Of a DNA stretch of 64,000 nt, positions 10,942-61,930 are shown piece by piece. Position 1 is the stretch's first letter, and each line of letters opens with the position of its first letter. The notes beneath the pieces are model-generated. The model was not told the origin of the DNA. It ran no database searches and worked only from the letters and a program-made list of their open reading frames with translations. The translations under genes and the position numbers were made by a program. This stretch comes from an uncultured Clostridia bacterium (lineage in GTDB: Bacteria; Bacillota; Clostridia; TANB77; CAG-508): assembly GCA_963558245.1 (NCBI GenBank), contig CAUWGA010000003.1, forward strand, positions 1,709 to 65,708, given 5' to 3'.

Positions 10942-12219
10942 TTAATTTTTCACAATAGATAACACCATTTTTTCTTCTTTAAATACACTTTTTAACAATT
11001 GATTCAAATATTCTACATTAACTCTATTTATATCTTCTAAATAGTCAAAAGTGCAAATACCTTTTAATGCATCTGTTAAAAACATCCTTGCTATGTCTGA
11101 AACATCATTATATTCTCTTATATATTCACCATATTCTTTTTTCTTTAACCTTTCAAAATCTTCTACGTTTATTCCTTCTTTTTGCATTTTTTCTACTGTT
11201 TTCTTAAATTCTTTATATACAAACTCTGGTTCATTTGACTGACCTGTTATTAATATATGTGAATACTTTCTTCCTACTTCGTAACTTAAGCTTGGCTCTC
11301 CAAATATCTTTCCATCTTCATACAATTTTTTATATAATTGTGAACTTTTTCCGAAGATTAAATCTAATAATATTTCCATTGCAATATATCTTTTCACTTG
11401 TTCATTTGAATCTAATTTATTTACATCTTCTTTTATCCCTATTGTATATAGTGGTTGACTTACTTCTAGCTTTTCTTCTATATATGGTTGTACTATTTCT
11501 TCTGGTTCATCTGAATTTATTCTTCTTATTTCTCCTTTTGCTTCAGTTTTTATAAGTCTTTTCTTTACATCTTCGATAATTTTTTCTGGTTCAAAATCTC
11601 CTGCAATTACCATTATCATATTTGATGGGTGATAAAATGTTTTATAACATTTATATAAAATTTCTTTATCAATATGACTTATCGTCTCAATTGTACCTGT
11701 TATATCTATTTTTATAGGGTTATTATGATACATAGCATTTAGGGCATTTAAATATACTTTCCATTCTGGATAGTCGTCATACATTCTAATTTCTTGACCT
11801 ATAATCCCTTTTTCTTTTTCTACATTTTCGTCTGTAAAATATGGATGTTGTACATAATCCATTAGCTCGTCCATTGCAGGATAAAAATTATCTGTACATT
11901 CAAACAAATATGCTGTGTGATCATTTGTTGTATATGCATTAGCATTAACTCCTAATGCTGTTAATGTATCTAGACTATTCGTTCCATCTGGTTGTTCAAA
12001 TAACTTATGTTCTAAAAAGTGGGCCACTCCATTTGGAACCTCAGTAATCTTGCTTTCTCCTGGTACAATAAATTTATTATCATTTGAGCCATAGTTAGTC
12101 CCCCATATCATATATTTTTTTTGCATTCCTTTTTTAGGAAATATAATAACAGTTAAACCATTTTTCAGTTTTTCTATATATACCTTTTCTTTAACTTTTG
12201 AGTTTTCTATTATCTTCAT
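10942..12219 (-). CDS. M16 (insulinase/pitrilysin) family zinc peptidase, active subunit
   Basis: HFLEHKLF (HxxEH) zinc motif. Start trimmed to ATG 12219, because the 22-codon extension in the track reads into the intergenic palindrome. Confidence 0.8.
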   Translation of the reverse strand: MKIIENSKVKEKVYIEKLKNGLTVIIFPKKGMQKKYMIWGTNYGSNDNKFIVPGESKITEVPNGVAHFLEHKLFEQPDGTNSLDTLTALGVNANAYTTNDHTAYLFECTDNFYPAMDELMDYVQHPYFTDENVEKEKGIIGQEIRMYDDYPEWKVYLNALNAMYHNNPIKIDITGTIETISHIDKEILYKCYKTFYHPSNMIMVIAGDFEPEKIIEDVKKRLIKTEAKGEIRRINSDEPEEIVQPYIEEKLEVSQPLYTIGIKEDVNKLDSNEQVKRYIAMEILLDLIFGKSSQLYKKLYEDGKIFGEPSLSYEVGRKYSHILITGQSNEPEFVYKEFKKTVEKMQKEGINVEDFERLKKKEYGEYIREYNDVSDIARMFLTDALKGICTFDYLEDINRVNVEYLNQLLKSVFKEEKMVLSIVKN

Positions 12220-12252
12220 ATATTTTACTATCCCTTCCTTAGGCACAAATCT

Positions 12253-12375
12253 AGTTGGAAAAGAATTGGATATTTGTCTAGGCAAATGAGATTTTAATTT
12301 ATTAGGCGTACGCAGGTACGTTGATTAAATTAAAATCGAAATTTAACGACGATAAATGCCAATTATTTTTCAACT
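12253..12375. repeat. Long imperfect palindrome between the two M16 genes
   Basis: The centre is CGTAC-GCAG-GTACG (12307-12320), extended by GATTTTAATTTA / TAAATTAAAATC and outer arms AGTTGGAAAAGAATTGG / CCAATTATTTTTCAACT. Confidence 0.7.
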
Positions 12376-12423
12376 TTTCTTTCTCCTAATAATTTTAATC
12401 ATACAGTTTATATAATTTTATCA

Positions 12424-13689
12424 TTAATTTTTCAGAAAATAGATTGTATTTATATTTACTTTTTTAGCAATTTTTATTATATCTTCTTTAGTGATACTTT
12501 TTATTCTTTCAATATATTTTTCTGGTATTATCCTTTGTTCTGATAACTCTTGTGAAAAATAATACGTAATTGCTGTGTCTTGTTCATCTTCAATTAAATT
12601 TATAGTTGCTATTATAACCTTTTTACAATTTTCTAATTCTTCTTCTGTAAATTTTCCTTGTTTCATATCTTCTATTTGTTCTTTTACTATTTTTAGTGCT
12701 TTTTCAAAATTTTCAATTTCTATACCACAATTTATTAATATATTATTTTTAAATCTATAATAATTAGAAGATGCGGCATATGCTAAATGTGCTTTTTCAC
12801 GTACATTTTGAAACAACTTAGAGTTAGCAGAACCTCCTAATATGGTATTATATGTTAAAACATCATATTTTTCATCATCGTTGTTTATTGATATATTTAA
12901 ACCTAACACTAGCTTTCCTTGTGATACATCTAAACTTTCTGTTATTATTTTTTCTTCTACCTCTCTATTTACTATTTCTGGTTTATTATAGATAACATCT
13001 CTTTCTTTTAATTTTTTAATATTCTCATTTTCTTTTATTAATTCTTCTTCATTTCCTTGTAATTCTCCTGATAAAAAGATATCTACTTTGCAATTCTGAA
13101 TTAATTCTTCATAATATTCATATAAATCTTTTGCATTTATTTTTTCTAAATCTTCTATATATCCGAATTTAAATAATCCATATGGTTCATTTTTATACAT
13201 TTCTGATAAGCATCTTTCTTGTGCGTATCTTGCTTTATTATCTATTTTTGCTTCAATAACCTTTCTTAGCATATTCTTTTCTTGTTCTACATATTGTTCT
13301 TTAAATCCACCATTTTCTGTATATGGATTAAAAGCTATTTCTAATAGTTTTTCAGTTGATGTTTTCAACATATTTTCACCAAGTTGTGGTAAATATTTAT
13401 CATTTATTGTTTCTATATATAGTTTTATTACTTGATTATCTCCTGTTTTGTCTAATCCTGAATTAAATATTGCTCCATAAAGTTCTTCCATTTGTTTTGT
13501 TATTTCTTCTTGTGTTTTCATGTTTTTACTACCTTGTCTTAAAAGCATAGAAATTAGAGCATTTTTAGTTACATTTTCTCTATTTAATTTTGTTGTTAAA
13601 AATATTGCCATAAGATTAGTTTTAAATTTGTTTGTTTTTATTGTATGGAATTTAATTCCTTTTTTTATTTCAATTGTTTTATAGTCCAT
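12424..13689 (-). CDS. M16-family peptidase-like protein lacking the HxxEH motif (likely non-catalytic partner)
   Basis: Length and M16-like layout, paired with the adjacent active M16 gene. I saw no HxxEH motif. Confidence 0.65.
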   Translation of the reverse strand: MDYKTIEIKKGIKFHTIKTNKFKTNLMAIFLTTKLNRENVTKNALISMLLRQGSKNMKTQEEITKQMEELYGAIFNSGLDKTGDNQVIKLYIETINDKYLPQLGENMLKTSTEKLLEIAFNPYTENGGFKEQYVEQEKNMLRKVIEAKIDNKARYAQERCLSEMYKNEPYGLFKFGYIEDLEKINAKDLYEYYEELIQNCKVDIFLSGELQGNEEELIKENENIKKLKERDVIYNKPEIVNREVEEKIITESLDVSQGKLVLGLNISINNDDEKYDVLTYNTILGGSANSKLFQNVREKAHLAYAASSNYYRFKNNILINCGIEIENFEKALKIVKEQIEDMKQGKFTEEELENCKKVIIATINLIEDEQDTAITYYFSQELSEQRIIPEKYIERIKSITKEDIIKIAKKVNINTIYFLKN

Positions 13690-28554: not shown

Positions 28555-31500
28555 TTATAAATTATCTTCATCATTATCTATGTTGTCTTGGGCTAAATCA
28601 TTACCATATAGTAATTCTTCGCCTTCATCATCTAAATCTTGGAATAGTTCGTCACTATCTTCTAAGTCTTCTTCAAGTAAAGAATCATTATCAAATTCTT
28701 CTCCATATCCATCTTCTAATTCATCTGATACAACAACTTCTTCTTCAGCTAAAATCTTTTTATCTTTTTCTGGATCATATTCGATTCCTTCGTCAATATT
28801 TTCTTTTAGCTCTAATTCTTGATTATCTTCAGAATATAAACGTATGTCTAATCCTAAAGATTGAAGTTCTTTAACTAATACTTTAAAGCTTTCTGGAACT
28901 CCTGGTTCTGGGATGTTTTCTCCCTTAACAATTGCTTCATAAGTTTTAACACGTCCTACAACGTCATCTGATTTTACTGTTAGCATTTCTTGTAATGTGT
29001 ATGCTGCTCCATATGCTTCTAATGCCCAAACTTCCATTTCTCCAAAACGTTGTCCACCAAATTGTGCTTTACCTCCAAGAGGTTGTTGAGTTACTAATGA
29101 GTATGGTCCAGTTGAACGAGCATGTATTTTATCATCAACTAAGTGGTGAAGTTTTAACATGTACATAACACCAACTGTAATTGGTTTATCAAATGGATCT
29201 CCTGTTCTACCATCATATAGAATTGTTTTTCCATCTTCACTCATACCTGCTTCTTTTAGTAGGTCTCTTACGTCTTGTTCTGTTGCTCCGTCAAATACTG
29301 GTGTAGAAATTTTCCATCCTAATGCTTTTGCAGCTCCACCCAAATGAACTTCTAAAACTTGACCTAAGTTCATACGAGAAGGAACACCTAATGGGTTTAA
29401 TAGGATATCTATTGGTGTACCATCTGGCATAAATGGCATATCTTCTTCTGGTAATACTCTTGAGATAACACCTTTGTTACCATGACGTCCAGCCATTTTA
29501 TCTCCAACTGATATTTTTCTTTTTGTTGCAATGTAACATCTAATAATTTGATTTACACCAGGTCCTAATTCATCTGAATTTTCTCTAGTAAATATTTTAA
29601 CATCTACTATTGTTCCAGCTTCTCCATGTGGTACTCTTAATGATGTATCTCTTACTTCTCTAGCCTTTTCACCGAAGATAGCTCTTAATAATCTTTCTTC
29701 AGCTGTTAGTTCTGTTTCACCTTTTGGTGTAACTTTTCCAACTAAGATATCCCCTGGCCTTACTTCTGCACCAATTCTGATAATTCCATTTTCGTCTAAG
29801 TCTTTTAATGAGTCATCACCAATATTTGGTATATCTCTTGTGATTTCTTCTGCTCCTAGTTTTGTATCACGACATTCGCAGTCATATTCTTCGATATGAA
29901 TTGATGTAAATACATCTTCTTTTACAAGTTTTTCGTTAATTAAGATAGCATCCTCGTAGTTGTAACCTTCCCATGTAGAGAAAGCAACTAATACGTTTTT
30001 ACCAAGTGCCATTTCTCCATTTTTAGTTGATGGTCCATCTGCTATGGCATCACCTTTTTTAACGATTTCTCCTCTTTTTACAATTGGTTTTTGGTTGATA
30101 CATGTTCCACCATTTGTTCTTTTAAATTTACGTAACTTATGTGTTACTGTTTTTCCATTTTTATATTTTACAGTGATATAATCTCCAGTAACTTTTTCGA
30201 TTACACCATCATCTTCTGCTAAGATTAAAATTCCAGAGTCTTTTGCTGCTCTATATTCCATACCTGTTCCAACTATTGGACTTTCTGTTACCATTAGTGG
30301 TACAGCTTGACGTTGCATGTTAGCACCCATAAGAGCTCTTTTTGCGTCGTCATGCTCTAAGAAAGGTATCATTGCTGCTGCTACAGAAACTAATTGTTTT
30401 GGAGATACGTCTACATATTGAACTCTATCTCTGTCAACTTCTATAACTTCATTTCTGTTTCTTACTCTAACTCTTTTATTTATAAATCTTCCATCTTCAT
30501 CTATTGGTTCTGATGCTTGAGCTATTATGTAATTATCTTCTACATCAGCACTCATATATTCAACTTCATCTGTTAATTGATGTGTTTCTGGATTAATTTT
30601 TCTATATGGTGTTTCTATAAATCCATATTCATTGATTTGTGAGAAACAAGAAAGTGCAGATATAAGACCAATGTTTGGTCCTTCTGGAGATTCGATAGGG
30701 CAAAGTCTACCATAATGTGTATAGTGAACGTCACGTACTTCGAATCCAGCTCTTTCTCTTGTTAATCCACCTGGTCCTAATGCTGAAATTCTTCTTTTAT
30801 GTGTTAATTCTGAAAGTGGATTTGTTTGATCCATGAATTGAGATAATTGTGAGCTTCCAAAGAATTCACGAATTGCAGATGTTATTGGTTTTGTGTTTAT
30901 TAATGTTTGAGGTGTTACAACATCTAAGTCTTGTATTGTCATTCTTTCACGAACTACTCTTTCAAGTCTTGTTAAACCAATTCTAAATTGGTTTTGTAAT
31001 AATTCCCCAACACAACGAATTCTACGATTTGATAAGTGGTCTATATCATCAGCTGAACCTAGTCCATGTGATAAATTTAATAACCAGCTTATAGATGCTA
31101 TCATATCTTCTGTTGTTATATGTTTTGGTATTAATTCTTCTATTCTTTCTTCTAATGCTTTTAGTAAATCTTTTTCTTCTGTATTATCAATTATACTTTT
31201 TAATACATTATAATTTACTAATTCTTTTATATTTAAACTGCTTAAATCTAATGTTGGTAATACTGCATGAATATCAACTGTACCGTTTCCTATAATTCTT
31301 ATAATTCTATCTCCTACAGTGATATCTACAATGTTAATTCCTGAATTTTGAATGTTTTTTGCTGTTTCTTCTGATATTACTTCTCCAGCTTGAACAAGAA
31401 CTTCTCCTGTTTCGCTATCTATAATATCTTTTGATGAAATTTTACCTTCAATTCTTGAAGCTAATGATAATTTTTGGTTGAATTTATATCTACCAACTTT

Positions 31501-32316
31501 TGCTAAGTCATATCTTCTATTGTCATAGAATAAACCATTAAATAAGTTCTTAGCAGCTTCTACTGTTGGTAATTCTCCTGGTCTTAATTTCTTATAAATT
31601 TCAATTAAAGCTTCGTCTTGGTCTTTTATTGTATCTTTATTTAGAGTTGTTTTTAGCAATTCTTCATCACCAAATAAGTCCAAAATTTGGCTATCTGTTG
31701 CTAATCCTATCGCTCTTAATAATGTACTTACAGGAACTTTTCTTGTTCTGTCAACACGTACCCAGAATATGTCGTTTCCATCTGTTTCATATTCTAGCCA
31801 TGCTCCTCTTAAAGGCATTACTGTTGAGTTGTATGTTCTTTTTCCTGTTTTTGTATCAAATTCTTCTCCATAATAACATCCAGGTGAACGTACTAATTGG
31901 CTTACTACAACTCTTTCTGCACCATTTATAATAAATGTTCCACTATCTGTCATAAGAGGGAAGTCACCTAAATAAATTTCTTGTTCTTTGATTTCTCCTG
32001 TTTCACGATTAATTAAACGTACTTTTACATGTAATCTTGTAGAATATGTTGCATCTCTTTCTTTTGCTTCTTCTACAGAGTATTTTGTTTTGTCCTCCAT
32101 GTAATAGTCAAAAAATTCAAGAACTAAGTTGCCTGAATAGTCCTCAATAGGTGAAATATCTTTTAATACTTCTCCTAATCCTTCATGTATGAAATTGTCG
32201 TATGAATCTTTTTGGACTTTAATAAGGTTTGGCATTTCAATAAAGTCGCCAACTTTTGCGAAATCTTTACGAGAAGCTTTCTCGTAGTTAACTTCTTTTA
32301 CTTTCAAAAAAATCAC
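28555..32316 (-). CDS. rpoB: DNA-directed RNA polymerase subunit beta
   Basis: [12 protein letters not shown] and other RpoB blocks. The track start is a GTG lying inside GAGGTGA, so the TTG at 32307 (MKVKEVNY...) is the better-spaced start. Confidence 0.96.
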
Positions 32317-32704
32317 CTCATAAAAAATTTTAAGCAGAATGAAAATTTATCTTTTTTAAAAGAAGTCCTTCTTAAAATTCAAGTTGCTTGTCTAAGTTTT
32401 TATATTGTCTGCTCACACAACTAAAACCCTAGGGCTACTTGACTTTAATTCCTCTTCTCTTAATTTTAAACTTTTGAATAAAAATATCTGCATATAATTT
32501 TATCATATAAAAACGTTATAGTCAACGGTTTGAATACAATTTGCCGCTTTTTTTATAAATTGTGCATTCAAAATTCTAATGCAACCAAAACTTAATATAT
32601 ATTTTAACTATTAAGCTGCATTTTTTATTGTTGTTATAATAATTTCATAGCTATTTTTAACCATATTATACTTTTGAAATTTTACTAATTTATACACAAA
32701 AAAT

Positions 32705-32729
32705 AAAAACCTCTAAATGCGAGGTTTTT
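32705..32729 (-). terminator. Rho-independent terminator after pilin-like gene P1
   Basis: AAAAACCTC / GAGGTTTTT stem, T-run on the minus strand, 6 nt after the stop. Confidence 0.65.
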
Positions 32730-32735
32730 ATTTTA

Positions 32736-34067
32736 TTACTTTGTATAAAAGTTTATAAATCTTTGTATACTTTGATATTCATTTACTGGATTGTTATTAG
32801 TAGAATCATATACTATTTTAGTATATGATGAATCCATAACATTTCCATTTGGTGCTATTACAAATCCTCCTGTATTATATGATGATTCCACCCATTTTCT
32901 CCAATTCATACCTGAGTCTAATCCATATTGTACACCATCTATATATATCGTAAACATTGGCATTTGCCAATTTGCCACTAACTCTAAGTTTCTATAAATT
33001 GATATTGTTTCAGATGGCAAATAAGTTTTAGCATCTCCATACCAATATGAAAAATTCCAGCCAGCTTTCGAAGGTGTTTGACTGCTTATAGTAATTGTTG
33101 CTGCAATTTCTTCTCCAGCATAGTTCATGTATACTGTTCCTGTTTGATTATCTGGTTCTACTGTTCCTCCATCTGCATTATAAGACACTGTTACTGTTTT
33201 ACTATAAGAAGCATAATATGTTTTATCTGTTGAAACATTTACTGTTTCATTAGGTAATACTTCAATTCTAGCATTTCCAGATTTTTCAGTTGACCATCCT
33301 CTTGTATAATATGTTTCTCCAGATACATTTATATTTCCTATTGTTAAAACTGTAATATCTGTACTAGTATTTTTATTATAAATCATTACCGGCTTATTAA
33401 TTGTTTCTGTATTTCGTCCATTATAATAATTAAATGTTATTGTTATGGTTTTACTATAGATAGCATATAAGGTTATATCACTTGTTCCCATATTTAAATT
33501 TTCTATTTTACTTGTCGCATTTTTATCTGTATTCCATCCAACAAACTCATATCCTTGTTTTGTTGCAGTTGGTGATAAATCTATTTTTGAACCGCTTTGT
33601 ATAGTATCTGTTGTTTTAGTTGATGAGCTTCCTCCATTTTCTGCATAATTATATGTTACTGTATATTTTCTTCCATCCTGTGTTTTTTCTAAGTAGTCGT
33701 CTAATTTTCCTTCTATTACATATCTCGGATTCTTTGTTGTTATAGAACCTGTTTCTTTATTAACATCATCTCTTGTAGCTATTATATCTTCTTTTAATAA
33801 TCCATCAATTATGTCTTCTAATGTTGGATTTCTATGTGTTCCTTCTACTTGAATTATTACTTGATCTATCCTCTCTTCCATATTTGCTTTTTCTATTTCT
33901 TCTTTTGCATTTTGTGCTTGCTTTATTATTCCATTATCTGATGTTATTGCTGCTATTGATACACCTGCAAGTATTAGCAGTACTATTATTGTTATTGCCA
34001 ATGCTATTACTGTAATACCTTTTGAATTTGTTTTTAAATTCTTATACACTTCTTTTTCTCTTTTCAT
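32736..34067 (-). CDS. Modular pilin-like protein P1: non-canonical class III-like signal/anchor plus Listeria-Bacteroides repeat cargo
   Basis: N-terminus is ...NSKG ITVIALAITIIVLLILAGVSIAAITSDNGIIKQAQNAK. The C-terminus has repeats with GYEFVGWNTD, YTRGWSTE, AGWNFSYWYGD and LVANW signatures. The GTG at 34049 aligns with the P2 start and may be the true start. Confidence 0.7.
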   Translation of the reverse strand: MKREKEVYKNLKTNSKGITVIALAITIIVLLILAGVSIAAITSDNGIIKQAQNAKEEIEKANMEERIDQVIIQVEGTHRNPTLEDIIDGLLKEDIIATRDDVNKETGSITTKNPRYVIEGKLDDYLEKTQDGRKYTVTYNYAENGGSSSTKTTDTIQSGSKIDLSPTATKQGYEFVGWNTDKNATSKIENLNMGTSDITLYAIYSKTITITFNYYNGRNTETINKPVMIYNKNTSTDITVLTIGNINVSGETYYTRGWSTEKSGNARIEVLPNETVNVSTDKTYYASYSKTVTVSYNADGGTVEPDNQTGTVYMNYAGEEIAATITISSQTPSKAGWNFSYWYGDAKTYLPSETISIYRNLELVANWQMPMFTIYIDGVQYGLDSGMNWRKWVESSYNTGGFVIAPNGNVMDSSYTKIVYDSTNNNPVNEYQSIQRFINFYTK

Positions 34068-34135
34068 CTTATGTTTTATTTATTTTGTAAATTTTTATCT
34101 TTACTTATGTATCTTATCAATATTTATAAATTAAT
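33683..34135. repeat. Duplicated 5' module (promoter, RBS, about 125 codons) shared with P2
   Basis: About 90% identical by eye to 35221-35670. Identity ends abruptly after ...GSITTKNPxYxIxGKLDxYLE. Confidence 0.75.
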
Positions 34136-34197
34136 GCAATACATCATTATACTTTTTAAAAAAAATATTAAAAAACTTAATTAATATTATTTAATTA

Positions 34198-34226
34198 AGC
34201 CATGAAAATATTGTATTTTCATGACT
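34198..34226. terminator. Hairpin downstream of P2; a related copy is at 35767-35805
   Basis: GCCATGAAAATA / TATTTTCATGAC stem. The T-run is only on the plus side, so its function for the minus-strand gene is uncertain. Confidence 0.35.
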
Positions 34227-34258
34227 TTTTGACAGTAATTATATTATTAATCTTTTAT

Positions 34259-35587
34259 CTATAAATATAAAATTGGTCTGAAGCAATGATAATCCCATTT
34301 GTCATCTAAAAATCCTGTATATCTTTGCTGAGTATTTGTTATATAATACCACCTTCCTCCACGTCCTGTACAAGGAGTAGAATCATCTCCAAACGTTTCT
34401 GTTGACCATTCCTCAGTATTACTTGCCATATCATATATATTACATATCTTATCTGATTTGCTTAGATGATTAGTTCCTTTCGGTTCTGTGGCATTATTAT
34501 TTATACTAACTTGAATAGAATATGGTTTTTCTTTATTTTCTCTATTATCACATGCTTGCAAAAATACTATTGCAGTATCCCATGCATAACTATTTACTAA
34601 ATCACTTTCAAAATTACTATTGTTATACATATTTCTACTTAAATCTGCTGCTTGTGGTTGTGTTACATAATTATACACGTAATTTTCTGCTGTACTTACA
34701 ACTTGATTTGTGTCACTTGTTGTTTCTGTTCTTGCTATTGTTGTATTTTTGTCTCTTGCTTCATATCTTCCTATGTAATATCCTTTACTTGTTGTCGCTT
34801 TTGTTTTAAAATCATCTATATTTTTTGCTGTAGTATTTCCTTTATATGATATTGATAATTCCTCAAAACTGTATTTATCTGCATCATCTCTTCTAATAGG
34901 ATTATTGCCATGATTTGTTTCTTTTCCTGTTACTTCATCAAATGTATATCTACTCAAATTTATCGTTACTTTTGTTTTATTTTTCTTTGTTACTTCTCCT
35001 ACTGGTATCCACACAAATTGGCTTCCTACTGTTGGTCTTGTTGTATCTACATCTTCTATTATTATTCCGTCTGGCACTGTTTCATCTGGATTTATTATCT
35101 TAAATCCTGCTGGGACTTTTACTTCATTTCCTAACTTGTCCTTTACAAGTGTATTGGTTGTTTCAGTTCCTGTTACTGTTCCTAATGTTCCTTGATCTGT
35201 TGGTTTACCGTTTTCTCCTGAATTTTCTAAATATTCATCTAATTTTCCATCTATTATATAACTTGGATTTTTTGTTGTTATAGAACCTGTTTCTTTGTTA
35301 ACATCTTGTGCTGAGCCTATTACTTCTCCTTTTATCAATCCTTCTATTACATCATTTAATGTTGGATTTCTATGTGCTCCTTCTACTTCAATTATTACTT
35401 GATCTATTCTTTCTTCCATATTTGCTTTTTCTGTCTCATCTTTAGCATTTTGTGCTTGTTTTATTATTCCATCATCTGATGTTATTGCTGCTATTGACAC
35501 CCCTGCAAGTATTAGCAATACTATTATCGTTATCACTAATGCTATTAATGTAATACCTTTTGAATTTGTTTTAAAGTTCTTATTCAC
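34259..35587 (-). CDS. Modular pilin-like protein P2: non-canonical class III-like signal/anchor plus FGE-sulfatase (SUMF1)-like domain
   Basis: N-terminus is MNKNFKTNSKG ITLIALVITIIVLLILAGVSIAAITSDDGIIKQAQNAK. C-terminal motifs are YYIGRYEA, NIYDMASNTEEW, RGGRW and a terminal CFRP. GTG start after AAAGGAGAAG. Confidence 0.7.
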   Translation of the reverse strand: MNKNFKTNSKGITLIALVITIIVLLILAGVSIAAITSDDGIIKQAQNAKDETEKANMEERIDQVIIEVEGAHRNPTLNDVIEGLIKGEVIGSAQDVNKETGSITTKNPSYIIDGKLDEYLENSGENGKPTDQGTLGTVTGTETTNTLVKDKLGNEVKVPAGFKIINPDETVPDGIIIEDVDTTRPTVGSQFVWIPVGEVTKKNKTKVTINLSRYTFDEVTGKETNHGNNPIRRDDADKYSFEELSISYKGNTTAKNIDDFKTKATTSKGYYIGRYEARDKNTTIARTETTSDTNQVVSTAENYVYNYVTQPQAADLSRNMYNNSNFESDLVNSYAWDTAIVFLQACDNRENKEKPYSIQVSINNNATEPKGTNHLSKSDKICNIYDMASNTEEWSTETFGDDSTPCTGRGGRWYYITNTQQRYTGFLDDKWDYHCFRPILYL

Positions 35588-41376: not shown

Positions 41377-44300
41377 TTAATAATTTTCTGTATATGATGT
41401 TTGCTTTCCGTCAGGACTTATTGTAGCCACCCATCCTTTAGAAACATTCCCTGCTACGTCTGATATCTCTACATACATTTTTATTGTTCTTTGTGTAAAA
41501 CTATTATCATTCATCGGAATTACACATCTATAAGAATAACTTTGTGACCCTGTAATATAACCTTCTGTATTTCCATACATCGGAGCAAATTCAATCATTG
41601 TTTGTTTATTATACGAATATTCTAAATCTGTTTTATAGTAACAATCAATTTTAGCAATTCCAGATTCATTTTCTTTAATTGCATTTAATTGAAGATATGC
41701 CTCTCTTTTAACTTGATCTCTAGATATCGCCATCATTCCTTTTTGCATTTTAGTTGGAGGTGTTTTATCTATATTAGTTATATTATAACTTGCATGTCCT
41801 CCTGATGTGTATCCATCTGTTAACCTTGCATAAATTGTTCCATTTTGTTTTACTGCTATTCTATTAGTTGTCACCCAACTATACTCATCTAAAGGATTTC
41901 CTGTTGTTAACTGTAAAGTCCATTTCGTTTCAGATGTTCTAACACTTACATTTACATCTTGATTTGTCCATCTAGTTACATCTGGTGTAAACCATACATT
42001 TGTATTTGTTATTAGTGATGGTATTTGAGCTTGCCATCTTGCATATATAGTTGTATTTCCTGTTGGTGTGTATGTTCCTCCTGCATCTCCTACTTTACTT
42101 CCTCCTGTTGATGATGTATACCATCCTAAAAATGTATATCCTTCTTTTGTTGGTCTTGGTAATGTTATACCTATATGACTATAATTTGCTGTCAATGTTC
42201 CATTTTGACTTCCAAATGTATATGTATTCCCATATATTCTTCCTCCTCCTGATATTGACCAACCATTAAAAGAATAATATGAACTACTTGATGTTTGATT
42301 TACATTTCCTCCATTTGCATTAAATGTAACTCTATATCCTGATGGTGATGTTGGAGTTGGTATTGTTACCTGTTCTCCTTCTTTTCCCGTTTTTATCGTT
42401 CCTCCTGATATGCTTCCTTGTCCTGGGTTTATTGTTAGTGTATATCTTGGAAGTGAATTTGTTGTTACTGTTTTATATGCACTTTTGTTTCCTGCTTCAT
42501 CCTTTACCCATACATAATATGTTGTACCTTCATTTAATCCTGATACAGTTATATTTAAATTATTTGTTTTTCCAACAGTTATGAAACTACCTGGAAAACT
42601 ATTAGTTGAAATTGCATATCCATTTATTCCTGTACCACTATCTGTTGCTTCTATTGTTATTGACGTTGTTCCTGGTATTAATCTAGTAATGTTTGGTGCT
42701 GTCCTATCTTCCCATCTTGCATATATAATTGTATTTCCTGTTGGTGTGTATGTTCCTCCTGCATCTCCTACTTTACTTCCTCCTGTTGATGATGTATACC
42801 ATCCTAAAAATGTATATCCTTCTTTTGTTGGTCTTGGTAATGTTATACCTATATGACTATAATTTGCTGTCAATGTTCCATTTTGACTTCCAAATGTATA
42901 TGTATTCCCATATATTCTTCCTCCTCCTGATATTGACCAACCATTAAAAGAATAATATGAACTACTTGATGTTTGATTTACATTTCCTCCATTTGCATTA
43001 AATGTAACTCTATATCCTGATGGTGATGTTGGAGTTGGTATTATTACCTGATCTCCTTCTTTCCCTATTTTTGTCGTTCCTCCTGTTATACTTCCTTGTC
43101 CTGGATTTATTGTTAATGTATATCTCGGAACAGCATTTGTTGTTACTGTTTTATATTCACTTTGATTTCCTGCTTCATCTTTTACCCATACATAATATGT
43201 TGTACCTTCATTTAACCCCGATACTGCTATATTTAAATTATTTGTTTTTCCAACAGTTATAAAGCTACCTGGAACACTATTAGTTGAAATTGCATATCTA
43301 TTTATTCCTGTACCACTATCTGTTGCTTCTATTGTTATTGACGTTGTCCCTGGTATTAATCTAGTAATGTTTGGTGGCGTCCTATCTTCCCATCTTGCAT
43401 ATATTGTTATATTTCCTGATGGTGTGTATATATTTCCTGCATCTCCTACTTTGCTTCCTCCTGTTGATGATGTATACCACCCTAAAAATGTATAGCCTTC
43501 TCTTGTTGGGGTTGGTAAAGTTACTCCTACATGGCTATAACTTGCCGTTATTGTTCCGTTTTGATTTCCAAATGTATATGTATTCCCGGATATTGTTCCT
43601 CCTCCAGACAAAGTCCATTTGTTAAAAGTATAATTTGAATTAATTGACGTTTGACTTACTTTTCCTCCATTTCCATTTAATGTTACCGTGTATCCTGATG
43701 GTGATGTTGGAGCTGGTATTGTTATTTGCTCTCCATTTTTTCCTGTTTTTGTTGTTTCTCCTGTAATACTTCCTTGCCCTGGATTTATTGTTAATGTGTA
43801 TCTTGGAACAGCACTTGTTGTTACTGTTTTATGTTCACTCTGATTTCCCGCTTCATCTTTTACCCACACATAATATGTTGTATTTTCTTTTAATTCTGAT
43901 ACTGTTATATTTAAATTATTTGTTTTTCCTACTGAGACAAAGCTACCTGGAACGGCACTTGTTGAAATTGCATATTTATTTATTCCTGTTCCACTATCTG
44001 TTGCTTCTATTGTTATTGATGTTGTTCCTGCAGTTAGTCTTGTAATCTTTGGTGCTATTTTATCTTCCCATCTTGCATATATTGTTACATTTCCTGTTGG
44101 CACATATTTACTCCCTGCATCTCCTACTTTGCTTCCTCCTGTTACTGATGTATACCACCCTAAAAATGTATAGCCTTCTCTTGTTGGAGTTGGTAAAATT
44201 ACTCCTATATGATTATAACTTGCTGTTAATGTTCCATCTTGAGTTCCAAATGTATATGTATTTCCAGATATTGTTCCTCCTCCAGATAACGTCCATTTAT

Positions 44301-45147
44301 CAAAAGTGTAGTTTGAATTGATTGCTACTTGGCTTACGCTCCCACCATTTCCATTTAGCGTTATCTTATATCCTAATGGTGCTGTAGGAGTTGATATTGT
44401 TATTTGTTCACCATTTTTTCCGGTTTTTGTAGTTTCTCCTACTATACTTCCTTGTCCTGGATTTATTGTTAATGTGTATTTTGGATCCTCAACTATTTTT
44501 TTATTGTATATTATTATTACTTTTTTTATATTTTTATCTAACGCAATAGTATCTGTTAATTTAACATCTTGTTTACTGCCATCTAATTTTTCTATTTCTG
44601 CTCTTTCAAATTCATAATTGTTTTTTTTCTTTATTTCTTCACTTAATTCAAGTTTACCTACGTTTATATTTTCATTTGTATATTCTTGCAATTTTCTACT
44701 TATTACGGTTCCATCTGATGTTTTATATTCTATTACTAATTTTAATTCTATAGAATCAGTCACATCACCTTCTGCTGTCACATAGTATTTTCTTTTTGTT
44801 TCTAAATATTCTATTCCAAATATATATGGACCTTGATCTTGTATAATGCTTACATCTATTTTTTGACTATTATAGTTATTTCTTAATTTTTGCTCGAGTT
44901 TGTCTCTATCTGTTATTTCTACTTTTCCGTTCCTTTTTTCTCCTATTAGTGCTACTATTGACATGTCTATATTTTCTTTTTCAGCTTGTATTTCTACTTG
45001 CTCTTTTGATTTATTTGCTTCTTTTATAATTCCATTATCACCTGTTAACATCATTATAGAAATACCTGCTAATATTAGTAAAACAATTATGGTTATTGCT
45101 AATGCAATTATTGTAACACCTTTATTATTTCTTAATTTTGATTTCAT
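41377..45147 (-). CDS. Giant modular pilin-like protein P3: non-canonical class III-like signal/anchor plus 3.6 tandem [Listeria-Bacteroides repeat x2 + Fn3/Ig-like] units plus C-terminal beta domains
   Basis: N-terminus is MKSKLRNNKG VTIIALAITIIVLLILAGISIMMLTGDNGIIKEANKSK. Repeated blocks are GYTFLGWYTS..GGSKVG...IYARWED and ATDSGTGIN.YAIST...TTYYVWVKDEAGN. Confidence 0.75.
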   Translation of the reverse strand: MKSKLRNNKGVTIIALAITIIVLLILAGISIMMLTGDNGIIKEANKSKEQVEIQAEKENIDMSIVALIGEKRNGKVEITDRDKLEQKLRNNYNSQKIDVSIIQDQGPYIFGIEYLETKRKYYVTAEGDVTDSIELKLVIEYKTSDGTVISRKLQEYTNENINVGKLELSEEIKKKNNYEFERAEIEKLDGSKQDVKLTDTIALDKNIKKVIIIYNKKIVEDPKYTLTINPGQGSIVGETTKTGKNGEQITISTPTAPLGYKITLNGNGGSVSQVAINSNYTFDKWTLSGGGTISGNTYTFGTQDGTLTASYNHIGVILPTPTREGYTFLGWYTSVTGGSKVGDAGSKYVPTGNVTIYARWEDKIAPKITRLTAGTTSITIEATDSGTGINKYAISTSAVPGSFVSVGKTNNLNITVSELKENTTYYVWVKDEAGNQSEHKTVTTSAVPRYTLTINPGQGSITGETTKTGKNGEQITIPAPTSPSGYTVTLNGNGGKVSQTSINSNYTFNKWTLSGGGTISGNTYTFGNQNGTITASYSHVGVTLPTPTREGYTFLGWYTSSTGGSKVGDAGNIYTPSGNITIYARWEDRTPPNITRLIPGTTSITIEATDSGTGINRYAISTNSVPGSFITVGKTNNLNIAVSGLNEGTTYYVWVKDEAGNQSEYKTVTTNAVPRYTLTINPGQGSITGGTTKIGKEGDQVIIPTPTSPSGYRVTFNANGGNVNQTSSSSYYSFNGWSISGGGRIYGNTYTFGSQNGTLTANYSHIGITLPRPTKEGYTFLGWYTSSTGGSKVGDAGGTYTPTGNTIIYARWEDRTAPNITRLIPGTTSITIEATDSGTGINGYAISTNSFPGSFITVGKTNNLNITVSGLNEGTTYYVWVKDEAGNKSAYKTVTTNSLPRYTLTINPGQGSISGGTIKTGKEGEQVTIPTPTSPSGYRVTFNANGGNVNQTSSSSYYSFNGWSISGGGRIYGNTYTFGSQNGTLTANYSHIGITLPRPTKEGYTFLGWYTSSTGGSKVGDAGGTYTPTGNTTIYARWQAQIPSLITNTNVWFTPDVTRWTNQDVNVSVRTSETKWTLQLTTGNPLDEYSWVTTNRIAVKQNGTIYARLTDGYTSGGHASYNITNIDKTPPTKMQKGMMAISRDQVKREAYLQLNAIKENESGIAKIDCYYKTDLEYSYNKQTMIEFAPMYGNTEGYITGSQSYSYRCVIPMNDNSFTQRTIKMYVEISDVAGNVSKGWVATISPDGKQTSYTENY
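42031..44484. repeat. In-frame 678-bp (226-codon) tandem repeat array, 3.6 units, inside P3
   Basis: Unit boundaries are 44484, 43806, 43128 and 42450. 42051-42362 and 42729-43040 look identical by eye, and the track shows identical spurious plus-strand peptides at 42051 and 42729. Confidence 0.9.
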
Positions 45148-52587: not shown

Positions 52588-55500
52588 TTATATTTTCTTT
52601 TTGATTAGGATTATTCCTGCTGCTAATGTGATTAGTCCACTTATTCCTAGTATTACATATGGTAAATAGTTTTTGTTTTCTCCGGTTGGTCCTGTAATTA
52701 CTATAACTTTTTCATCATTGTCACTTTCATAAGTTGTACTGTTTCCTGGTACATAGTTTCCTGATATTGAATCATATATAGGTCTGTCTTTTAATTCATT
52801 TACTTCTATATGATTATCAAATGAATAGTCATCTTGTGTGTTTGATAATAGTTTTGATACTGTCATTTTTGCTATTTCTACTGTTCCTGGTTTCATATTA
52901 GCAAATTTTTCTGTTTTAAATATTCTATTATATTTTTTAATATAGTTCCATGCTTCTTGTGATAAGTTCACCCCAGGTTTTAACTCGTCTGGTTTTACTA
53001 CTATCCAGTCTCCATTGTTTTCTGTTAAATTTTCGTCTTTAAATGTCAATTCATTTGATAGATAGTCATATAATTCTGTAACCGTTGCTAATTTCCAATT
53101 GTTTTTATTCGTTGCTATACCATAAATGTAATAATCTTTTTCATTAAAGTCTATTTCTGCTTTTCTGTTATCTACTTTAATTTCATATTCAACTTCTAAT
53201 GTTGCTCCTTGCATTAGTTCACTATCTATTTCTACATGTATATTTCCATCAGGTAAAAATTTCAAATGTTGAATATTTCCTGTTCTTGGGTCACCATCAA
53301 CTATTATTTGTCCATTTGCAAGTGTTAATTTTACGTGTGAAATTTCCTTTGTTATATTAAGCAATTGCATTGGTCTTTCTATAACACCAAAGTCCATATT
53401 GTCAAATATAAATTTAAGCTCTGCTCCATATTCACTTATATTATCTAAATTAACATCATAATCTAATTTTATATCAAATTTCCTTGTATTAGATTCTATA
53501 TTTTCTAGATTTTTTTCTACAGATGTTGAATAATTTATAATTTCTTCTTTTGTTCTCGCTTCAACTATATCAAATTTTGTTCCATCTTTGTTTATTCCCA
53601 TTTCGTCTTTGGCATCTGACAGTCTTGTAGCATCTTTTCCTGTTTCGCTTCTATACCAATAGTCTGTCATTTGATTTACTGCGTTTTTGTCGCCACCTCT
53701 GTATATAGTTGATTTATAATTAATTATTTTTACATCTTCTGTAGAGCCATCTAGTTTATATATTTTACTTGTATTTCCATAAGTATATCTTATAACATAA
53801 TTGCCTGGTATTACTCCACTAAATTCATAGTTTCCATCTGTTCCTGTGTTCATTTCAGCTGGCTCAGTAGTTTTATCTTTGTTATATAAAGTTGCTACTG
53901 AATAAATTTCATTACCATTTTGGCTTCCTTCTACTTTTAGTAATTCTACTTTAACATTTCCAACTACACCTTCATTTTTAGCTTCGTATTTACCATTTCC
54001 TTTTCTTTCTTTTTCTATTCCTGTTTTATCAAGTAGTTCTTTTATTGCTTCATCTTTCCATATTGTTCCTTTTATAACTCTTGCATTTGGTGCTTTTAAT
54101 ATAAGTGATGGTGCTTCATCTGTATCATCTTCGTATGTTACTTTGTCAGATGGAACAGTGCTTTCTGGATTAGAGTCTTTATCTATTCCGGCATATTTTT
54201 CACTAAATCCTTTATCCTTATATGAAGAATATGATGATATTTCTGTTACAGAATTTAATGTTACATATTCATTTAGTACAGCATTTACCGCTTCATTTTT
54301 TAATTTATATTCTATATATACAAATTCTTGCATTTGTGGATTAATTTGTTTATTAGTATTAATTGTGACTTTTTTAAATCCGTTGTTATTATAATTTGCA
54401 TCTACATCATGTTGTATGTCATTTCCAGATTGATCTTTTATACTAGAAATTTCATATCTGTTATCAAAATAATTAACTACTTTATTAACTTTTGTATATA
54501 AATTTGTCGCTTCATTTTTTATAGCTATTTTATATGTTATATAAACTTGTAGTTTTCCTTTGTTTTCATCTTGTGCATTATAAGATATGTCTGAAGAATA
54601 AATTTCTCTTGTATATGATGCTGAGCCCCATTTATTTCCGAATTTTACACTTACATTAAATCCGTCTCCTGTTTCTTGGCTATTTTCAAATCTTTGATTA
54701 TATTTATATGTATGCGTATATCCATTTAATGTTATTTTAGCTTTTTCTACATCTTCTATTAGAGCTATATCTGGCATTTCTCTTTCATATAATCCTAAGT
54801 TGATATATGGTATTTCTTCTATATTATTAGCATAAATTTGTTCAATAGTTATAGTTTGTCCTAATAACTTGTCTGGTGCTGCATCTTTTGTATTAGCTAT
54901 TAACATATATTGTTTATCAATTCCTGATACTGGATATTTTTGACCATTATATCCATACAAGTAATTTCCTCCATATTGTAATGTACTTACATGGTTATTA
55001 TATGAATAATTTAATTTATACACATCTTTATTGTCACTATTTTTTGATTGATTATGATTAATTATTGCATAATTATTATTAAATTCTGGTCTTAATTTAT
55101 CATCTGTAGCTTTACTTCCATTATTTGCGGTTATTTTAACATCCACAGATTTATAACACATACCGTTATAATCAAATTCTATATACGCTCCTTTTAAATC
55201 TTCTATACGAATTCTTTTAGTTGCATTGTCTCTTTGGTAATCTCCAAATATGTATGCACCTTCTTCTTTTTCTCCCTTAGTATTTGTTATTGTGCTCGTT
55301 GTTTTTGTATCTATTATTGTTCCATCTGCTTTTTTCAATGTAACTTTTACATTTGCTACCCTTTTATCTTCTTGATCATTTTGATCATTTTTCCATAAGT
55401 GGTTTCTAATTGATGTTTTTTGAGATATCATATCCTCCCATACATATCCACTTAATTTTACATATATTCTTTTATTTGTATATGTTGCATTTATAGATTG

Positions 55501-56805
55501 TCCTACTGCCTTTATATCTATTGTTCCCATTTCTTTTGGTTTATCCACACTTACTTCTACATATCCGAAATGTGGATTTATTACTTCATATACTATGTAT
55601 GTACCTTTTTTGTTTATATTTCTAACTTTTACTTTTCCATCTGCTTTTGTCGTATATATTGTTGCTTTTGTTTTATCTTGAGTATATGTAGCTGGAGTTC
55701 CATCTACTACCCATCCTCTTTCTTTACAATATACTGTAAACCCTACATTTGCTAGAACTTTTTTTGTGTCTTCATCCTTTTTTTGAATATAAATATTAGT
55801 AAAATATACTCTTGGTAATTCTATCATAATTTCTTCTGAACCTTCATCAACACCTAAAAATTCCCCACCATAAGTAGCCATATTTTGTCCACCATTAGAT
55901 GCATAAAATACCATTCTAGCACGTAATCCTCCAGATACTTTTTTATACAATTGTACTTTTTTTGCACTATCTGGTTTTTCATTTTTAAACGCTAAGTAAA
56001 AAGTTCCACCATTTGGAATAGATGCTATTCCTTGTACTCCTGCAGGATTCGGTGTACTTGCCCATCCGTCTGCTTTACAGGTTTTCCCCTCTTCTGTAAT
56101 AACTAATCCTTTAGTAATTGTTCCTGAACCAGTATTTTGTATTTTATATGGTCCTACAAATACCCATTCACCAATTTCTTCTATAACCTGTATATTTTGT
56201 GTACTCTTATCTATAAAGTTAAAATTCTTTGTTGAATTAACAAAATTTTCTCCTTCTTCTTTTAATCTATAATATTTATCTCTACCAAATTGATTTATCA
56301 TAAAGCTTTCACTAACTCCACCTGGTAAAGAACTATTAAATAATCCTTCTCTTACCATTACACTTGAATACATCGCTGATGTTTGCATCATCATTAGTCT
56401 ATATGGGCTAGTTCCTGTTGCTCCCCATGGTTCTCTATTTTGATATGATTTCGTTGCATAATATAATACTTGCATTGCTCTTCTAGCACCTTCTGAATTT
56501 GTTGTACTAAGGTTGTTTACACTTGATATTCCATTTTTTCCAACATCTACTACTGAAGTTAGCATATTATTGTGGTTAGCCCATCCATGTGTAAATGGAT
56601 CCATACAATAATACGCATATGAATTTGCACCTGGATCTGTATTTCCATCTGTATAAGGCTCTATATTCATATTAAGAAATCCATCTAAATTGTTCATAGC
56701 TTCTCTAGTTATTGATCCCATAGTTTGATATCCTAAAGATGGTTTTAACATTATTAATATAGTACTTACAAATAATATTATTCCAATTGTTAGTCTCTTT
56801 TTCAT
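52588..56805 (-). CDS. Wall-anchored adhesin-like protein (1405 aa): signal peptide, possible thioester domain, SpaA/Cna-B and SdrD-B-like domains, C-terminal sorting signal
   Basis: Signal peptide MKKRLTIGIILFVSTILIML and the YAYYCMDP context. Prealbumin-like blocks FTVYCKERGW...GTYIVYEVINPHFGY and SdrD-B-like blocks GTIWKDEA...TGTDGNYEFSGVIPGNYVIRYTYG. C-terminus is VITGPTGENKNYLPYVILGISGLITLAAGIILIKKKI. Confidence 0.7.
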   Translation of the reverse strand: MKKRLTIGIILFVSTILIMLKPSLGYQTMGSITREAMNNLDGFLNMNIEPYTDGNTDPGANSYAYYCMDPFTHGWANHNNMLTSVVDVGKNGISSVNNLSTTNSEGARRAMQVLYYATKSYQNREPWGATGTSPYRLMMMQTSAMYSSVMVREGLFNSSLPGGVSESFMINQFGRDKYYRLKEEGENFVNSTKNFNFIDKSTQNIQVIEEIGEWVFVGPYKIQNTGSGTITKGLVITEEGKTCKADGWASTPNPAGVQGIASIPNGGTFYLAFKNEKPDSAKKVQLYKKVSGGLRARMVFYASNGGQNMATYGGEFLGVDEGSEEIMIELPRVYFTNIYIQKKDEDTKKVLANVGFTVYCKERGWVVDGTPATYTQDKTKATIYTTKADGKVKVRNINKKGTYIVYEVINPHFGYVEVSVDKPKEMGTIDIKAVGQSINATYTNKRIYVKLSGYVWEDMISQKTSIRNHLWKNDQNDQEDKRVANVKVTLKKADGTIIDTKTTSTITNTKGEKEEGAYIFGDYQRDNATKRIRIEDLKGAYIEFDYNGMCYKSVDVKITANNGSKATDDKLRPEFNNNYAIINHNQSKNSDNKDVYKLNYSYNNHVSTLQYGGNYLYGYNGQKYPVSGIDKQYMLIANTKDAAPDKLLGQTITIEQIYANNIEEIPYINLGLYEREMPDIALIEDVEKAKITLNGYTHTYKYNQRFENSQETGDGFNVSVKFGNKWGSASYTREIYSSDISYNAQDENKGKLQVYITYKIAIKNEATNLYTKVNKVVNYFDNRYEISSIKDQSGNDIQHDVDANYNNNGFKKVTINTNKQINPQMQEFVYIEYKLKNEAVNAVLNEYVTLNSVTEISSYSSYKDKGFSEKYAGIDKDSNPESTVPSDKVTYEDDTDEAPSLILKAPNARVIKGTIWKDEAIKELLDKTGIEKERKGNGKYEAKNEGVVGNVKVELLKVEGSQNGNEIYSVATLYNKDKTTEPAEMNTGTDGNYEFSGVIPGNYVIRYTYGNTSKIYKLDGSTEDVKIINYKSTIYRGGDKNAVNQMTDYWYRSETGKDATRLSDAKDEMGINKDGTKFDIVEARTKEEIINYSTSVEKNLENIESNTRKFDIKLDYDVNLDNISEYGAELKFIFDNMDFGVIERPMQLLNITKEISHVKLTLANGQIIVDGDPRTGNIQHLKFLPDGNIHVEIDSELMQGATLEVEYEIKVDNRKAEIDFNEKDYYIYGIATNKNNWKLATVTELYDYLSNELTFKDENLTENNGDWIVVKPDELKPGVNLSQEAWNYIKKYNRIFKTEKFANMKPGTVEIAKMTVSKLLSNTQDDYSFDNHIEVNELKDRPIYDSISGNYVPGNSTTYESDNDEKVIVITGPTGENKNYLPYVILGISGLITLAAGIILIKKKI

Positions 56806-56829
56806 GGTTTCCTCCTTTCTATTAAAATT

Positions 56830-61749: not shown

Positions 61750-61834
61750 TTTTACCTCCACAAAAAATAAAGATAATTACTTAATATATATAGTAGTTTG
61801 TTTTGTTTCAAAAGGCAATATCAATAAATACCAT

Positions 61835-61872
61835 AAAAGGCAAATGTTACAAAAAGTATAACATTTGCCTTT
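61835..61872 (-). terminator. Terminator after the partial upstream surface protein gene
   Basis: 14-bp stem AAAGGCAAATGTTA / TAACATTTGCCTTT followed by TTTT on the minus strand. Confidence 0.6.
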
Positions 61873-61930
61873 AGGGATGCTTATTTCAAGCTTTTTTAAT
61901 TATTTTTTTTAAATTTAAATTACAAATTTG

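Follow-up and report, generated by a model that had tools for sequence, protein, structure and literature searches.

A glutamate at position +5 of the mature protein (Glu5) is nearly invariant in bacterial type IV pilins; within the filament core it presumably neutralises the amine of the N-terminus. Archaeal pilins and archaellins often lack this residue, and the sugar-binding proteins of the Sulfolobus bindosome carry class III signals. In the bacterial systems that have been studied Glu5 is needed for homopolymerisation (PMC4471445). Both archaeal pilins and the cap subunits of bacteria are known to lack it (PMC4471445, PMC10191384), the capping minor pilin of the GspK or PilK type being the only subunit of known systems to lack it (PMC10191384). 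Modular type IV pilins occur widely, over 1,200 being present in InterPro via IPR012902, and include PilB and PilC of Streptococcus sanguinis, which bear a vWA and a lectin module, respectively (PMC8179133). Here we consider three minus-strand open reading frames (ORFs), P1, P2 and P3 (Table 1), in a 64,000-nucleotide stretch of DNA from an uncultured Clostridia bacterium (contig CAUWGA010000003.1, positions 1,709 to 65,708), referred to throughout as the window. With a probability of about 0.7, we consider P1-P3 to be adhesin-like, cargo-bearing members of a lineage-specific type IV pilin-like family, displayed via a divergent type IV pilus (T4P) system. The hosts of the family are uncultured, low-GC, spore-forming gut Clostridia.

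An earlier note on this DNA, made from the sequence alone, had placed the three ORFs where we find them and had described a common, non-canonical start with Ile or Val at +1 and Ala at +5. The N-termini read in exactly this way. Leaders of 17, 11 and 10 residues in P1, P2 and P3, respectively, all basic and ending in K-G, are followed by (I/V)T(L/V/I)IAL(A/V)ITIIVLLILAG and a long helix (P1, NSKG/ITVIALAITIIVLLILAGVSIAAITSDNGIIKQAQNAK; P2, NSKG/ITLIALVITIIVLLILAGVSIAAITSDDGIIKQAQNAK; P3, NNKG/VTIIALAITIIVLLILAGISIMMLTGDNGIIKEANKSK). Residues +1 to +24 are hydrophobic and form alpha1N, which includes Ala5; a T-G-x-N-G hinge and an amphipathic alpha1C complete the layout. A six-frame regular expression search for K-G-[IV]-T-x-I-A-L retrieved P1, P2 and P3 only within the window, where the other N-terminally anchored proteins possess unrelated transmembrane segments. 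The common N-terminus reads as a variant, lineage-specific class III (prepilin) signal that lacks Glu5. The C-termini (INFYTK in P1, FRPILYL in P2 and SYTENY in P3) contain neither a sortase-type signal nor a hydrophobic or charged tail.

Searches with this N-terminus revealed a very large family. With the 124-aa N-terminus of P2 as query, at least 7,658 protein clusters were matched, the best at an E-value of 1e-65, and an exhaustive HMMER search with its first 64 aa matched 21,457 representatives at 50% identity; virtually all members are without a name or Pfam domain. A family of this size puts the shared N-terminus far beyond chance. Its consensus is xNKG/ITLIALVITIIVLLILAGVSIAMLTGxNGILTQAxNAKxxT. 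An alignment of the N-terminus was further scanned against one genome per GTDB species, yielding at least 515 loci, of which the best 80 were taken. All 80 belonged either to uncultured Clostridia metagenome-assembled genomes (MAGs) from human, rabbit, chicken and mouse gut or to Clostridium sp. CAG:440 or CAG:343. Of 100 distinct motif proteins, 99 have Gly at -1, 96 have Ile at +1 and 97 have Ala at +5. Their lengths were bimodal, with proteins of 125-192 aa encoded in operons and proteins of 300-750 aa dispersed. The motif is arranged differently in two proteins: P0012 (129 aa, NCBI) carries the 45-residue N-terminal motif as a tandem duplicate, and P0386 (706 aa) carries it internally at residues 391-444. 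Both may be assembly or gene-call artefacts, or fusions.

The operons in question identify the shorter proteins as pilins. P0027, a motif protein of 144 aa, lies inside a complete operon on a 119-kb contig (locus L001) encoding, in order, a PilM/N fusion (539 aa), a PilO-like protein (240 aa), a bitopic protein (158 aa), tandem pilins of 144 and 128 aa that both carry the motif, PilD, two minor pilins, PilB, PilT and PilC. Here, the assignments rest on matches of PilD to A24_N_bact (4.5e-30), of PilB to T2SSE (1.2e-105) and TIGR02538 (3.6e-123), of PilT to TIGR01420 (1.4e-94) and of PilC to T2SSF. The order pilMN, pilO, x, one to three pilA genes, pilD, two minor pilin genes, pilB, pilT and pilC recurs in relatives as a retractile operon of the type IVa pilus (T4aP) type, the same N-terminus heading its major pilins; of the 80 genome loci, 12 contain it, each with 1-3 pilins bearing the motif at the corresponding place. 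At the level of the family, the motif is linked to a prepilin peptidase, an assembly ATPase and a platform protein. Four MAGs (BRZ_HK__bin22, BRZ_DD__bin29, BRZ_L__bin35 and ERS329794__bin95) contain both the operon and dispersed large motif genes, and they reproduce the situation in the window, where cargo genes are distant from assembly genes. By extension, we infer that the window's own genome encodes the operon elsewhere.

The association was also evident in the reverse direction. Metagenome contigs were scanned with the PilD of the clade alone, giving 80 loci, 60 of which had enough upstream DNA. Ala5 pilins were located directly upstream of pilD in 59 of these 60. In 52 of the loci with Ala5 pilins the pilins measured 127-198 aa and in the remainder 71-83 aa; the latter belong to one sub-clade (L122, L127, L135, L147, L153, L168 and L178; ~5600-5900) and consist essentially of alpha1 alone, with Ala5. 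Ten further contexts found through PilT showed the same operon in a conserved chromosomal position, between spoVA-dodecin-rsmB and ROK-x-rpsB-tsf-pyrH-frr; in L001 and L179-L181 the flanks comprise infC-rpmI-rplT, spoVA, dodecin and rsmB on one side and ROK, x and rpsB-tsf-pyrH-frr-uppS-cdsA on the other. The operon thus appears to be a core trait that the clade inherits vertically. For PilT of the clade there are at least 4,300 clusters, a few of which are named by NCBI, as 'PilT/PilU family type 4a pilus ATPase [Clostridia bacterium]'.

Across ~190 loci the +5 residue was partitioned by subunit. Major pilins and all cargo proteins possess Ala (181 distinct sequences), minor pilin A Asp or Glu (51) and minor pilin B Ser or Thr (59), and not one canonical GFTLIE pilin was found in these loci. 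The L001 minor pilin genes, at 11753-12178 and 12182-12598, encode one protein of each type (A, GFTGID...; B, GITLIS...).

Positions +1 to +19 are 87-100% conserved in the family, and TGxNG, AK and a Glu near +48 are conserved too. Across genomes, the mean identity over residues -1 to +40 was 78% for operon pilins versus cargo proteins, compared with 81% among operon pilins. Conservation of this kind would fit a helix bound to a common partner (the filament core, PilD or the platform) and not a passive anchor. Furthermore, the weak matches of the P2 N-terminus in the PDB are to true pilin N-termini, those of geopilin and PilE1.

Within the window the extent of the common region differs between pairs. 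P1 33685-34049 (minus strand) and P2 35223-35587 share 87% DNA identity over 365 nt (blastn), and the similarity ends abruptly where the cargo begins; this sharp edge is a recombination or duplication boundary, and recent gene conversion applies to P1 versus P2. P3 has only the first ~45 residues in common with the other two. The conserved 125-aa module of the earlier note is therefore confined to P1 and P2. Recent gene conversion was also considered as the cause of the N-terminal identity of P3 with P1 and P2 and was rejected, as synonymous differences are numerous; for the same reason the N-terminal identity reflects selection on the protein. A hidden Markov model (HMM) of the P2 head (residues ~50-124) matched only the window's species and close relatives.

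Structures were predicted using AlphaFold 2 (AF2). In the model of the P0027 operon pilin (62-sequence alignment, pLDDT 84.5), helices at residues 3-31 and 36-70 are separated by a GQNG break and followed by a loop helix and an antiparallel sheet of 4-5 strands, which as modelled is a pilin topology. P2 residues 1-130 (16 sequences, pLDDT 75.6) are predicted to form helices at 9-36 and 41-71 followed by a small helix/hairpin head, the same arrangement of helix, GxNG break and helix as in P0027. The alpha1 helix that the earlier note would look for in residues 1-125 appears in the P2 model, and the models are consistent with membership of the pilin fold. Once the first 45 mature residues were removed, similarity between the heads of P1-P3 and those of the operon pilins was not significant, and for this reason we do not claim the 125-aa module as a whole pilin. 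The ~70-aa head or linker that lies between alpha1 and cargo in P1 and P2 gave no fold match in a Foldseek search with the P2 model.

Beyond this region the proteins carry different cargo, grafted onto the pilin-like N-terminus in P1, P2, P3 and their relatives as in modular pilins. The repeats and the sulfatase-like fold named in the earlier note were recovered, the latter through relatives, while its Fn3-type arrays were reduced to sub-threshold fn3-like Pfam signals in P3. Listeria-Bacteroides (Flg_new) repeats are present in both P1 and P3 (3.2e-39 in P3, Pfam), and copies 1 and 2 of the 678-bp unit of P3 share 99% identity, suggestive of a recent expansion or of a copy number that is still changing. 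The C-terminal 290 aa of P2 gave no Pfam match of their own. However, an FGE-sulfatase (PF03781) match was obtained for 10 of the 67 dispersed cargo proteins that we aligned from loci L017-L096 (best 1.4e-7), and a profile of the P2 cargo domain matched SUMF2 (1y4j, E=0.0065), PorK and Treponema denticola variable protein 1 (2y3c) in the PDB. The FGE-sulfatase-like domain is the commonest cargo among the 67, which also carry GLUG (6), LRR_5, LRR_4 or LRR_8, RCC1 and Laminin_G_3 domains. One carries a full alkaline phosphatase (PF00245, 4.7e-54), meaning that the N-terminal tag is not reserved for adhesins.

Cargo replacement at the P3 position between strains is real. In the sister strain (L014 1927-3270, ERZ27273536 contig_259_polypolish) the P3 slot is occupied by a 447-aa LRR_5 (BspA-type) protein. 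In a close relative (L005 8590-11269) a P2-like gene is apparently split into ORFs of 213 and 203 aa adjoining a UPF0236 transposase, and at the same locus another motif-bearing gene, of 412 aa, lies beside a gene for a TraG/type IV secretion system (T4SS) coupling protein.

We propose the following sequence of events for P1-P3. Each protein would be inserted N-in/C-out through alpha1N, whereupon the divergent PilD of the clade would cleave it behind Gly. Since its polymerisation helix is that of the major pilin, it would then be picked up by the PilB/PilC pilus machinery, after which it could join the filament by co-polymerisation, within it or on it, or be kept as a short stalk. The cargo would thereby be exposed on the surface, as Listeria-Bacteroides repeats in P1, an FGE-sulfatase-like, lectin-type fold in P2 and a repeat array in P3. 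A broader possibility, which we put forward only tentatively, is that this whole, abundant clade of gut Clostridia rebuilt its type IV filament system into a general means of surface display, with Ala5 majors, a PilD without GxGD in which the second catalytic acid has moved, and a portable alpha1 tag. Equally tentative is the idea that in each genome such a tag might bring dozens of adhesins and enzymes, unrelated to one another, to the pilus, either on it or beside it.

Several findings weigh against display via this pilus system. As the earlier note had reported for PilB, PilC, PilD and PilMNO, phmmer searches with the operon proteins found no homologue of PilB, PilC, PilD, PilT or PilMN within the 64 kb window, and searches with PilT failed to reveal the operon in the species of the window: the best 120 PilT matches, the cluster members and the P0512 contexts included none on the sister contig ERZ27273536 contig_259_polypolish (1,475,658 bp) or on the window's contigs. 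A single-protein scan of the genome collection with the P2 N-terminus gave no match, the window's species or this stretch being absent or unreadable there, and extension of the window to the left gave only a contig of 6.8 kb. Glu5, with its role in homopolymerisation, is missing from P1-P3. Cargo paralogues are many per genome, beyond the one or two modular minor pilins of S. sanguinis. In several relatives the cargo starts only ~50 residues past the hydrophobic segment, leaving no room for a pilin head, and some family members are consequently 'alpha1 plus cargo' and not 'whole pilin plus cargo'. The LRR_5 protein in the P3 slot of the sister strain has a related N-terminus, NENA/ITLIALVITITILLILAG, with Ala in place of Gly at -1.

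Profile and fold comparisons count on the same side. Against the Pfam N_methyl model (PF07963/IPR012902, cutoff 21.2 bits), P2 scored 15.2 bits and P3 10.4 bits and P1 gave no match, and TIGR02532 gave none with P1-P3 at E<=1. On the same N_methyl model, which the earlier note had advised, the operon pilins scored 16.6-22.1 bits, with one paralogue above the cutoff at 22.1, and 18 of the 67 cargo proteins matched at E<=0.01; these scores, though mostly under the cutoff, also count in favour of a pilin-type signal. Foldseek searches of the PDB with the P0027 and P2 models returned no significant pilin match (best pilin E=0.63, for P0027). Long-helix pilins align poorly in Foldseek.

The prepilin peptidase is also divergent. 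We assembled 72 distinct PilD sequences (L001 10929-11741 and 71 homologues in L017-L178). The GxGD motif was found in 0 of the 72, and Peptidase_A24 (PF01478) gave no match to the PilD of the clade at E<=1, so cleavage is not assured. A PDB search with the PilD profile returned zinc-finger noise only. The Cys-rich N-terminal A24_N_bact domain (PF06750), however, is intact with four invariant Cys residues, and hhalign pairs PilD over its full length with a prepilin peptidase of Bacillaceae (probability 99.9). The first catalytic aspartate (Asp126, L001 numbering) is kept in 71 of the 72. A second acidic residue is present at 176 or ~191 in 70, two sequences having neither: Asp176 occurs in 61, and eight with Ser or Asn at 176 have Asp at ~191 instead, the position that aligns with the canonical GGGD aspartate. 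This either/or pattern suggests that the catalytic pair has been maintained and relocated. That PilD is simply inactive was considered and then down-weighted on these grounds. Given that the acidic pair is kept, that Gly at -1 is near-invariant and that operon pilins have leaders of 5-7 residues, cleavage after Gly by PilD is likely.

The machinery might nevertheless be used for processing and display without polymerisation. The class III signal and PilD, perhaps with PilB/PilC, would then serve maturation, extraction or positioning only, and the proteins would stay anchored in the membrane or be part of a short stub resembling a pseudopilus, a situation akin to that of the archaeal bindosome. 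The very diverse cargo, with its alkaline phosphatase, the numerous paralogues in each genome and the members without space for a pilin head are all in keeping with this idea, as is a weak match of PilB to the bindosome ATPase model. We nonetheless think it rather unlikely. Alpha1 is conserved as in major pilins across 40 residues, beyond what recognition by the peptidase needs, and the alpha1-only majors of 71-83 aa make an alpha1-only filament plausible, into which alpha1 plus cargo could fit.

Plain type II signal-anchor proteins, having acquired a pilin-derived helix by domain shuffling and acting independently of the pilus machinery, would have no need of 87-100% identity at 19 consecutive positions, of an invariant Gly at -1 or of TGxNG..AK..T across thousands of paralogues and genomes. 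No such conservation is seen in the window's ordinary anchors, and motif and operon co-occur in the same genomes. We consequently judge this explanation improbable, even though the lack of assembly genes near P1-P3, the missing Glu5, the sub-threshold N_methyl scores, the non-canonical PilD and the absence of a pilin fold match for the head region all speak for it. Between the two outcomes left standing by the earlier note, a distinct pilin class or a simple anchor, the evidence favours the former because operon pilins carry the identical N-terminus. It is very improbable that the N-termini are long Gram-positive Sec signal peptides cut by signal peptidase I (SPase I) after 'VSIA' to give soluble secreted products, for although the basic n-region, hydrophobic core and S-x-A (VSIA/M or VSIAA/I) fit the -3/-1 rule, the core is nearly invariant whereas Sec signal peptides are not conserved in sequence, proteins of pilin size encoded in T4P operons start with this very segment, and A-x-A-like patterns occur in canonical pilins too, which are not SPase I substrates.

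The features of P1-P3 are collected in Table 1. The window is chromosomal and has a GC content of ~27%; P1 is followed directly downstream by rpoB and rpoC, and further products encoded are SpoIIE, FtsH and TrmFO. The exact P2 protein was found on 15 gut-metagenome contigs, indicating that the source organism is uncultured. The rpoB product (28555-32316, minus strand, 1253 aa) possesses an extremely acidic C-terminal tail of ~90 residues. At 52588-63919 (minus strand) three large Sec-signal proteins of 1405, 1643 and 662 aa contain SpaA/SdrD_B/DUF11 domains. At their C-terminal ends, '(G/A)PTGEN' or 'KTGAP' precedes a hydrophobic segment and a KKK tail. These ends resemble sorting signals of the sortase type whose motif is not LPXTG, and would provide the organism with a second display route.

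Table 1. Positions in the window of P1, P2, P3 and their parts (oblique strokes mark the predicted cleavage site).
Feature	Position	Strand	Description	Basis
P1	32736..34067	-	443 aa, pilin-like N-terminus and Listeria-Bacteroides repeat cargo	ORF list, Pfam, TIGR02543
P1 residues 1-62	33882..34067	-	leader ending KG, alpha1N with Ala5, hinge	sequence, regular expression
P1 cargo	32739..33662	-	Flg_new/List_Bact_rpt repeats and C-terminal domain	PF09479 2.1e-21; TIGR02543 8.1e-13
Terminator-like hairpin	32700..32734	-	directly 3' of P1	
P2	34259..35587	-	442 aa, pilin-like N-terminus and FGE-sulfatase-like cargo	ORF, family membership
P2 residues 1-56	35420..35587	-	leader MNKNFKTNSKG, predicted cleavage G/I, alpha1N with Ala5, TSDDG hinge, then start of amphipathic helix	sequence, N_methyl, PDB, AF2
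P2 residues 57-124	35216..35419	-	lineage-specific head/linker common to P1	HMM, AF2, Foldseek
P2 cargo	34262..35140	-	divergent FGE-sulfatase-like domain; motifs GYYIGRYEA, NSYAWDTA, NIYDMASNTEEW, RGG, FRP	
P3	41377..45147	-	1256 aa, pilin-like N-terminus and repeated Flg_new/fn3-like array	ORF, Pfam
P3 residues 1-55	44983..45147	-	leader MKSKLRNNKG, G/V, alpha1N with Ala5, TGDNG hinge	
P3 cargo	42030..44741	-	four tandem 678-bp (226-aa) units	repeat search, Flg_new x4

A large natural Ala5 lineage with an otherwise complete T4aP operon allows the Glu5 rule to be tested directly. It also exposes a blind spot in annotation, since tens of thousands of clusters from human, rabbit, chicken and mouse gut are missed by N_methyl/IPR012902 or PilFind-type censuses. 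If P1-P3 and their relatives are indeed displayed via the pilus system, the cargo proteins would be foremost among the candidates for adhesins and for factors that bind the host or glycans in this poorly known group of small-genome gut Clostridia. The PilD variant would widen the sequence space known for GxGD-type intramembrane proteases. Should the more tentative proposal of a portable tag hold, the family would correspond, in bacteria, to the class III secretome of archaea and would be a natural counter-example to the Glu5 assembly rule. A literature search for the motif string found no paper containing it, and we located no report of Glu5 loss in the major pilins of a bacterial T4aP-type system; a preprint on T4P-dependent secretion in Clostridium perfringens was set aside, its content being unrelated to Glu5.

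Comparison with described systems places the clade's system as a large, unannotated and mechanistically informative variant of type IV pilins, and not as a new category of system. With the monoderm T4aP pilins of C. perfringens, Clostridioides difficile and S. sanguinis (PilE1/E2) it shares the basic leader ending in Gly, the ~21-24 hydrophobic residues, the long alpha1, the operon with pilD, pilB, pilT, pilC and pilM/N/O and, by prediction here, pilin-sized products comprising alpha1 and a beta-sheet. It differs from them in having Ala for Glu at +5 in all majors, Ile or Val for Phe or Met at +1, a conserved TGxNG break after residue 24, N_methyl scores at or below threshold, a cognate PilD without GxGD and only one minor pilin that keeps Asp or Glu at +5.

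Like modular type IV pilins, members of the family have a pilin signal or module at the N-terminus, fused to a functional or adhesive module unrelated to it, and cargo is swapped between paralogues and strains. Unlike them, the cargo proteins carry the alpha1 of the major pilin and not that of a minor pilin, are dispersed round the chromosome, are numerous per genome, in some cases lack a recognisable pilin head and are largely invisible to IPR012902-based censuses. The dispensability of Glu5 and the use of the signal on a broad set of non-pilin-like surface proteins recall the archaeal class III proteins, whereas the machinery is of the bacterial T4aP type with PilT and PilM/N/O, PilD contains A24_N_bact and Gly at -1 is strictly kept. 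Cap pilins of the GspK/PilK type likewise lack the acidic +5 residue and can carry an extra domain, yet the pattern here is inverted, with the majors and all cargo proteins lacking Glu5 and one minor pilin keeping Asp/Glu5. Finally, the 71-83 aa operon pilins of one sub-clade resemble the very short Geobacter PilA-N and Flp pilins in being essentially alpha1, but have neither Glu5, Tyr6 nor an Flp motif and are encoded with pilB/pilT/pilC machinery and not with Tad.

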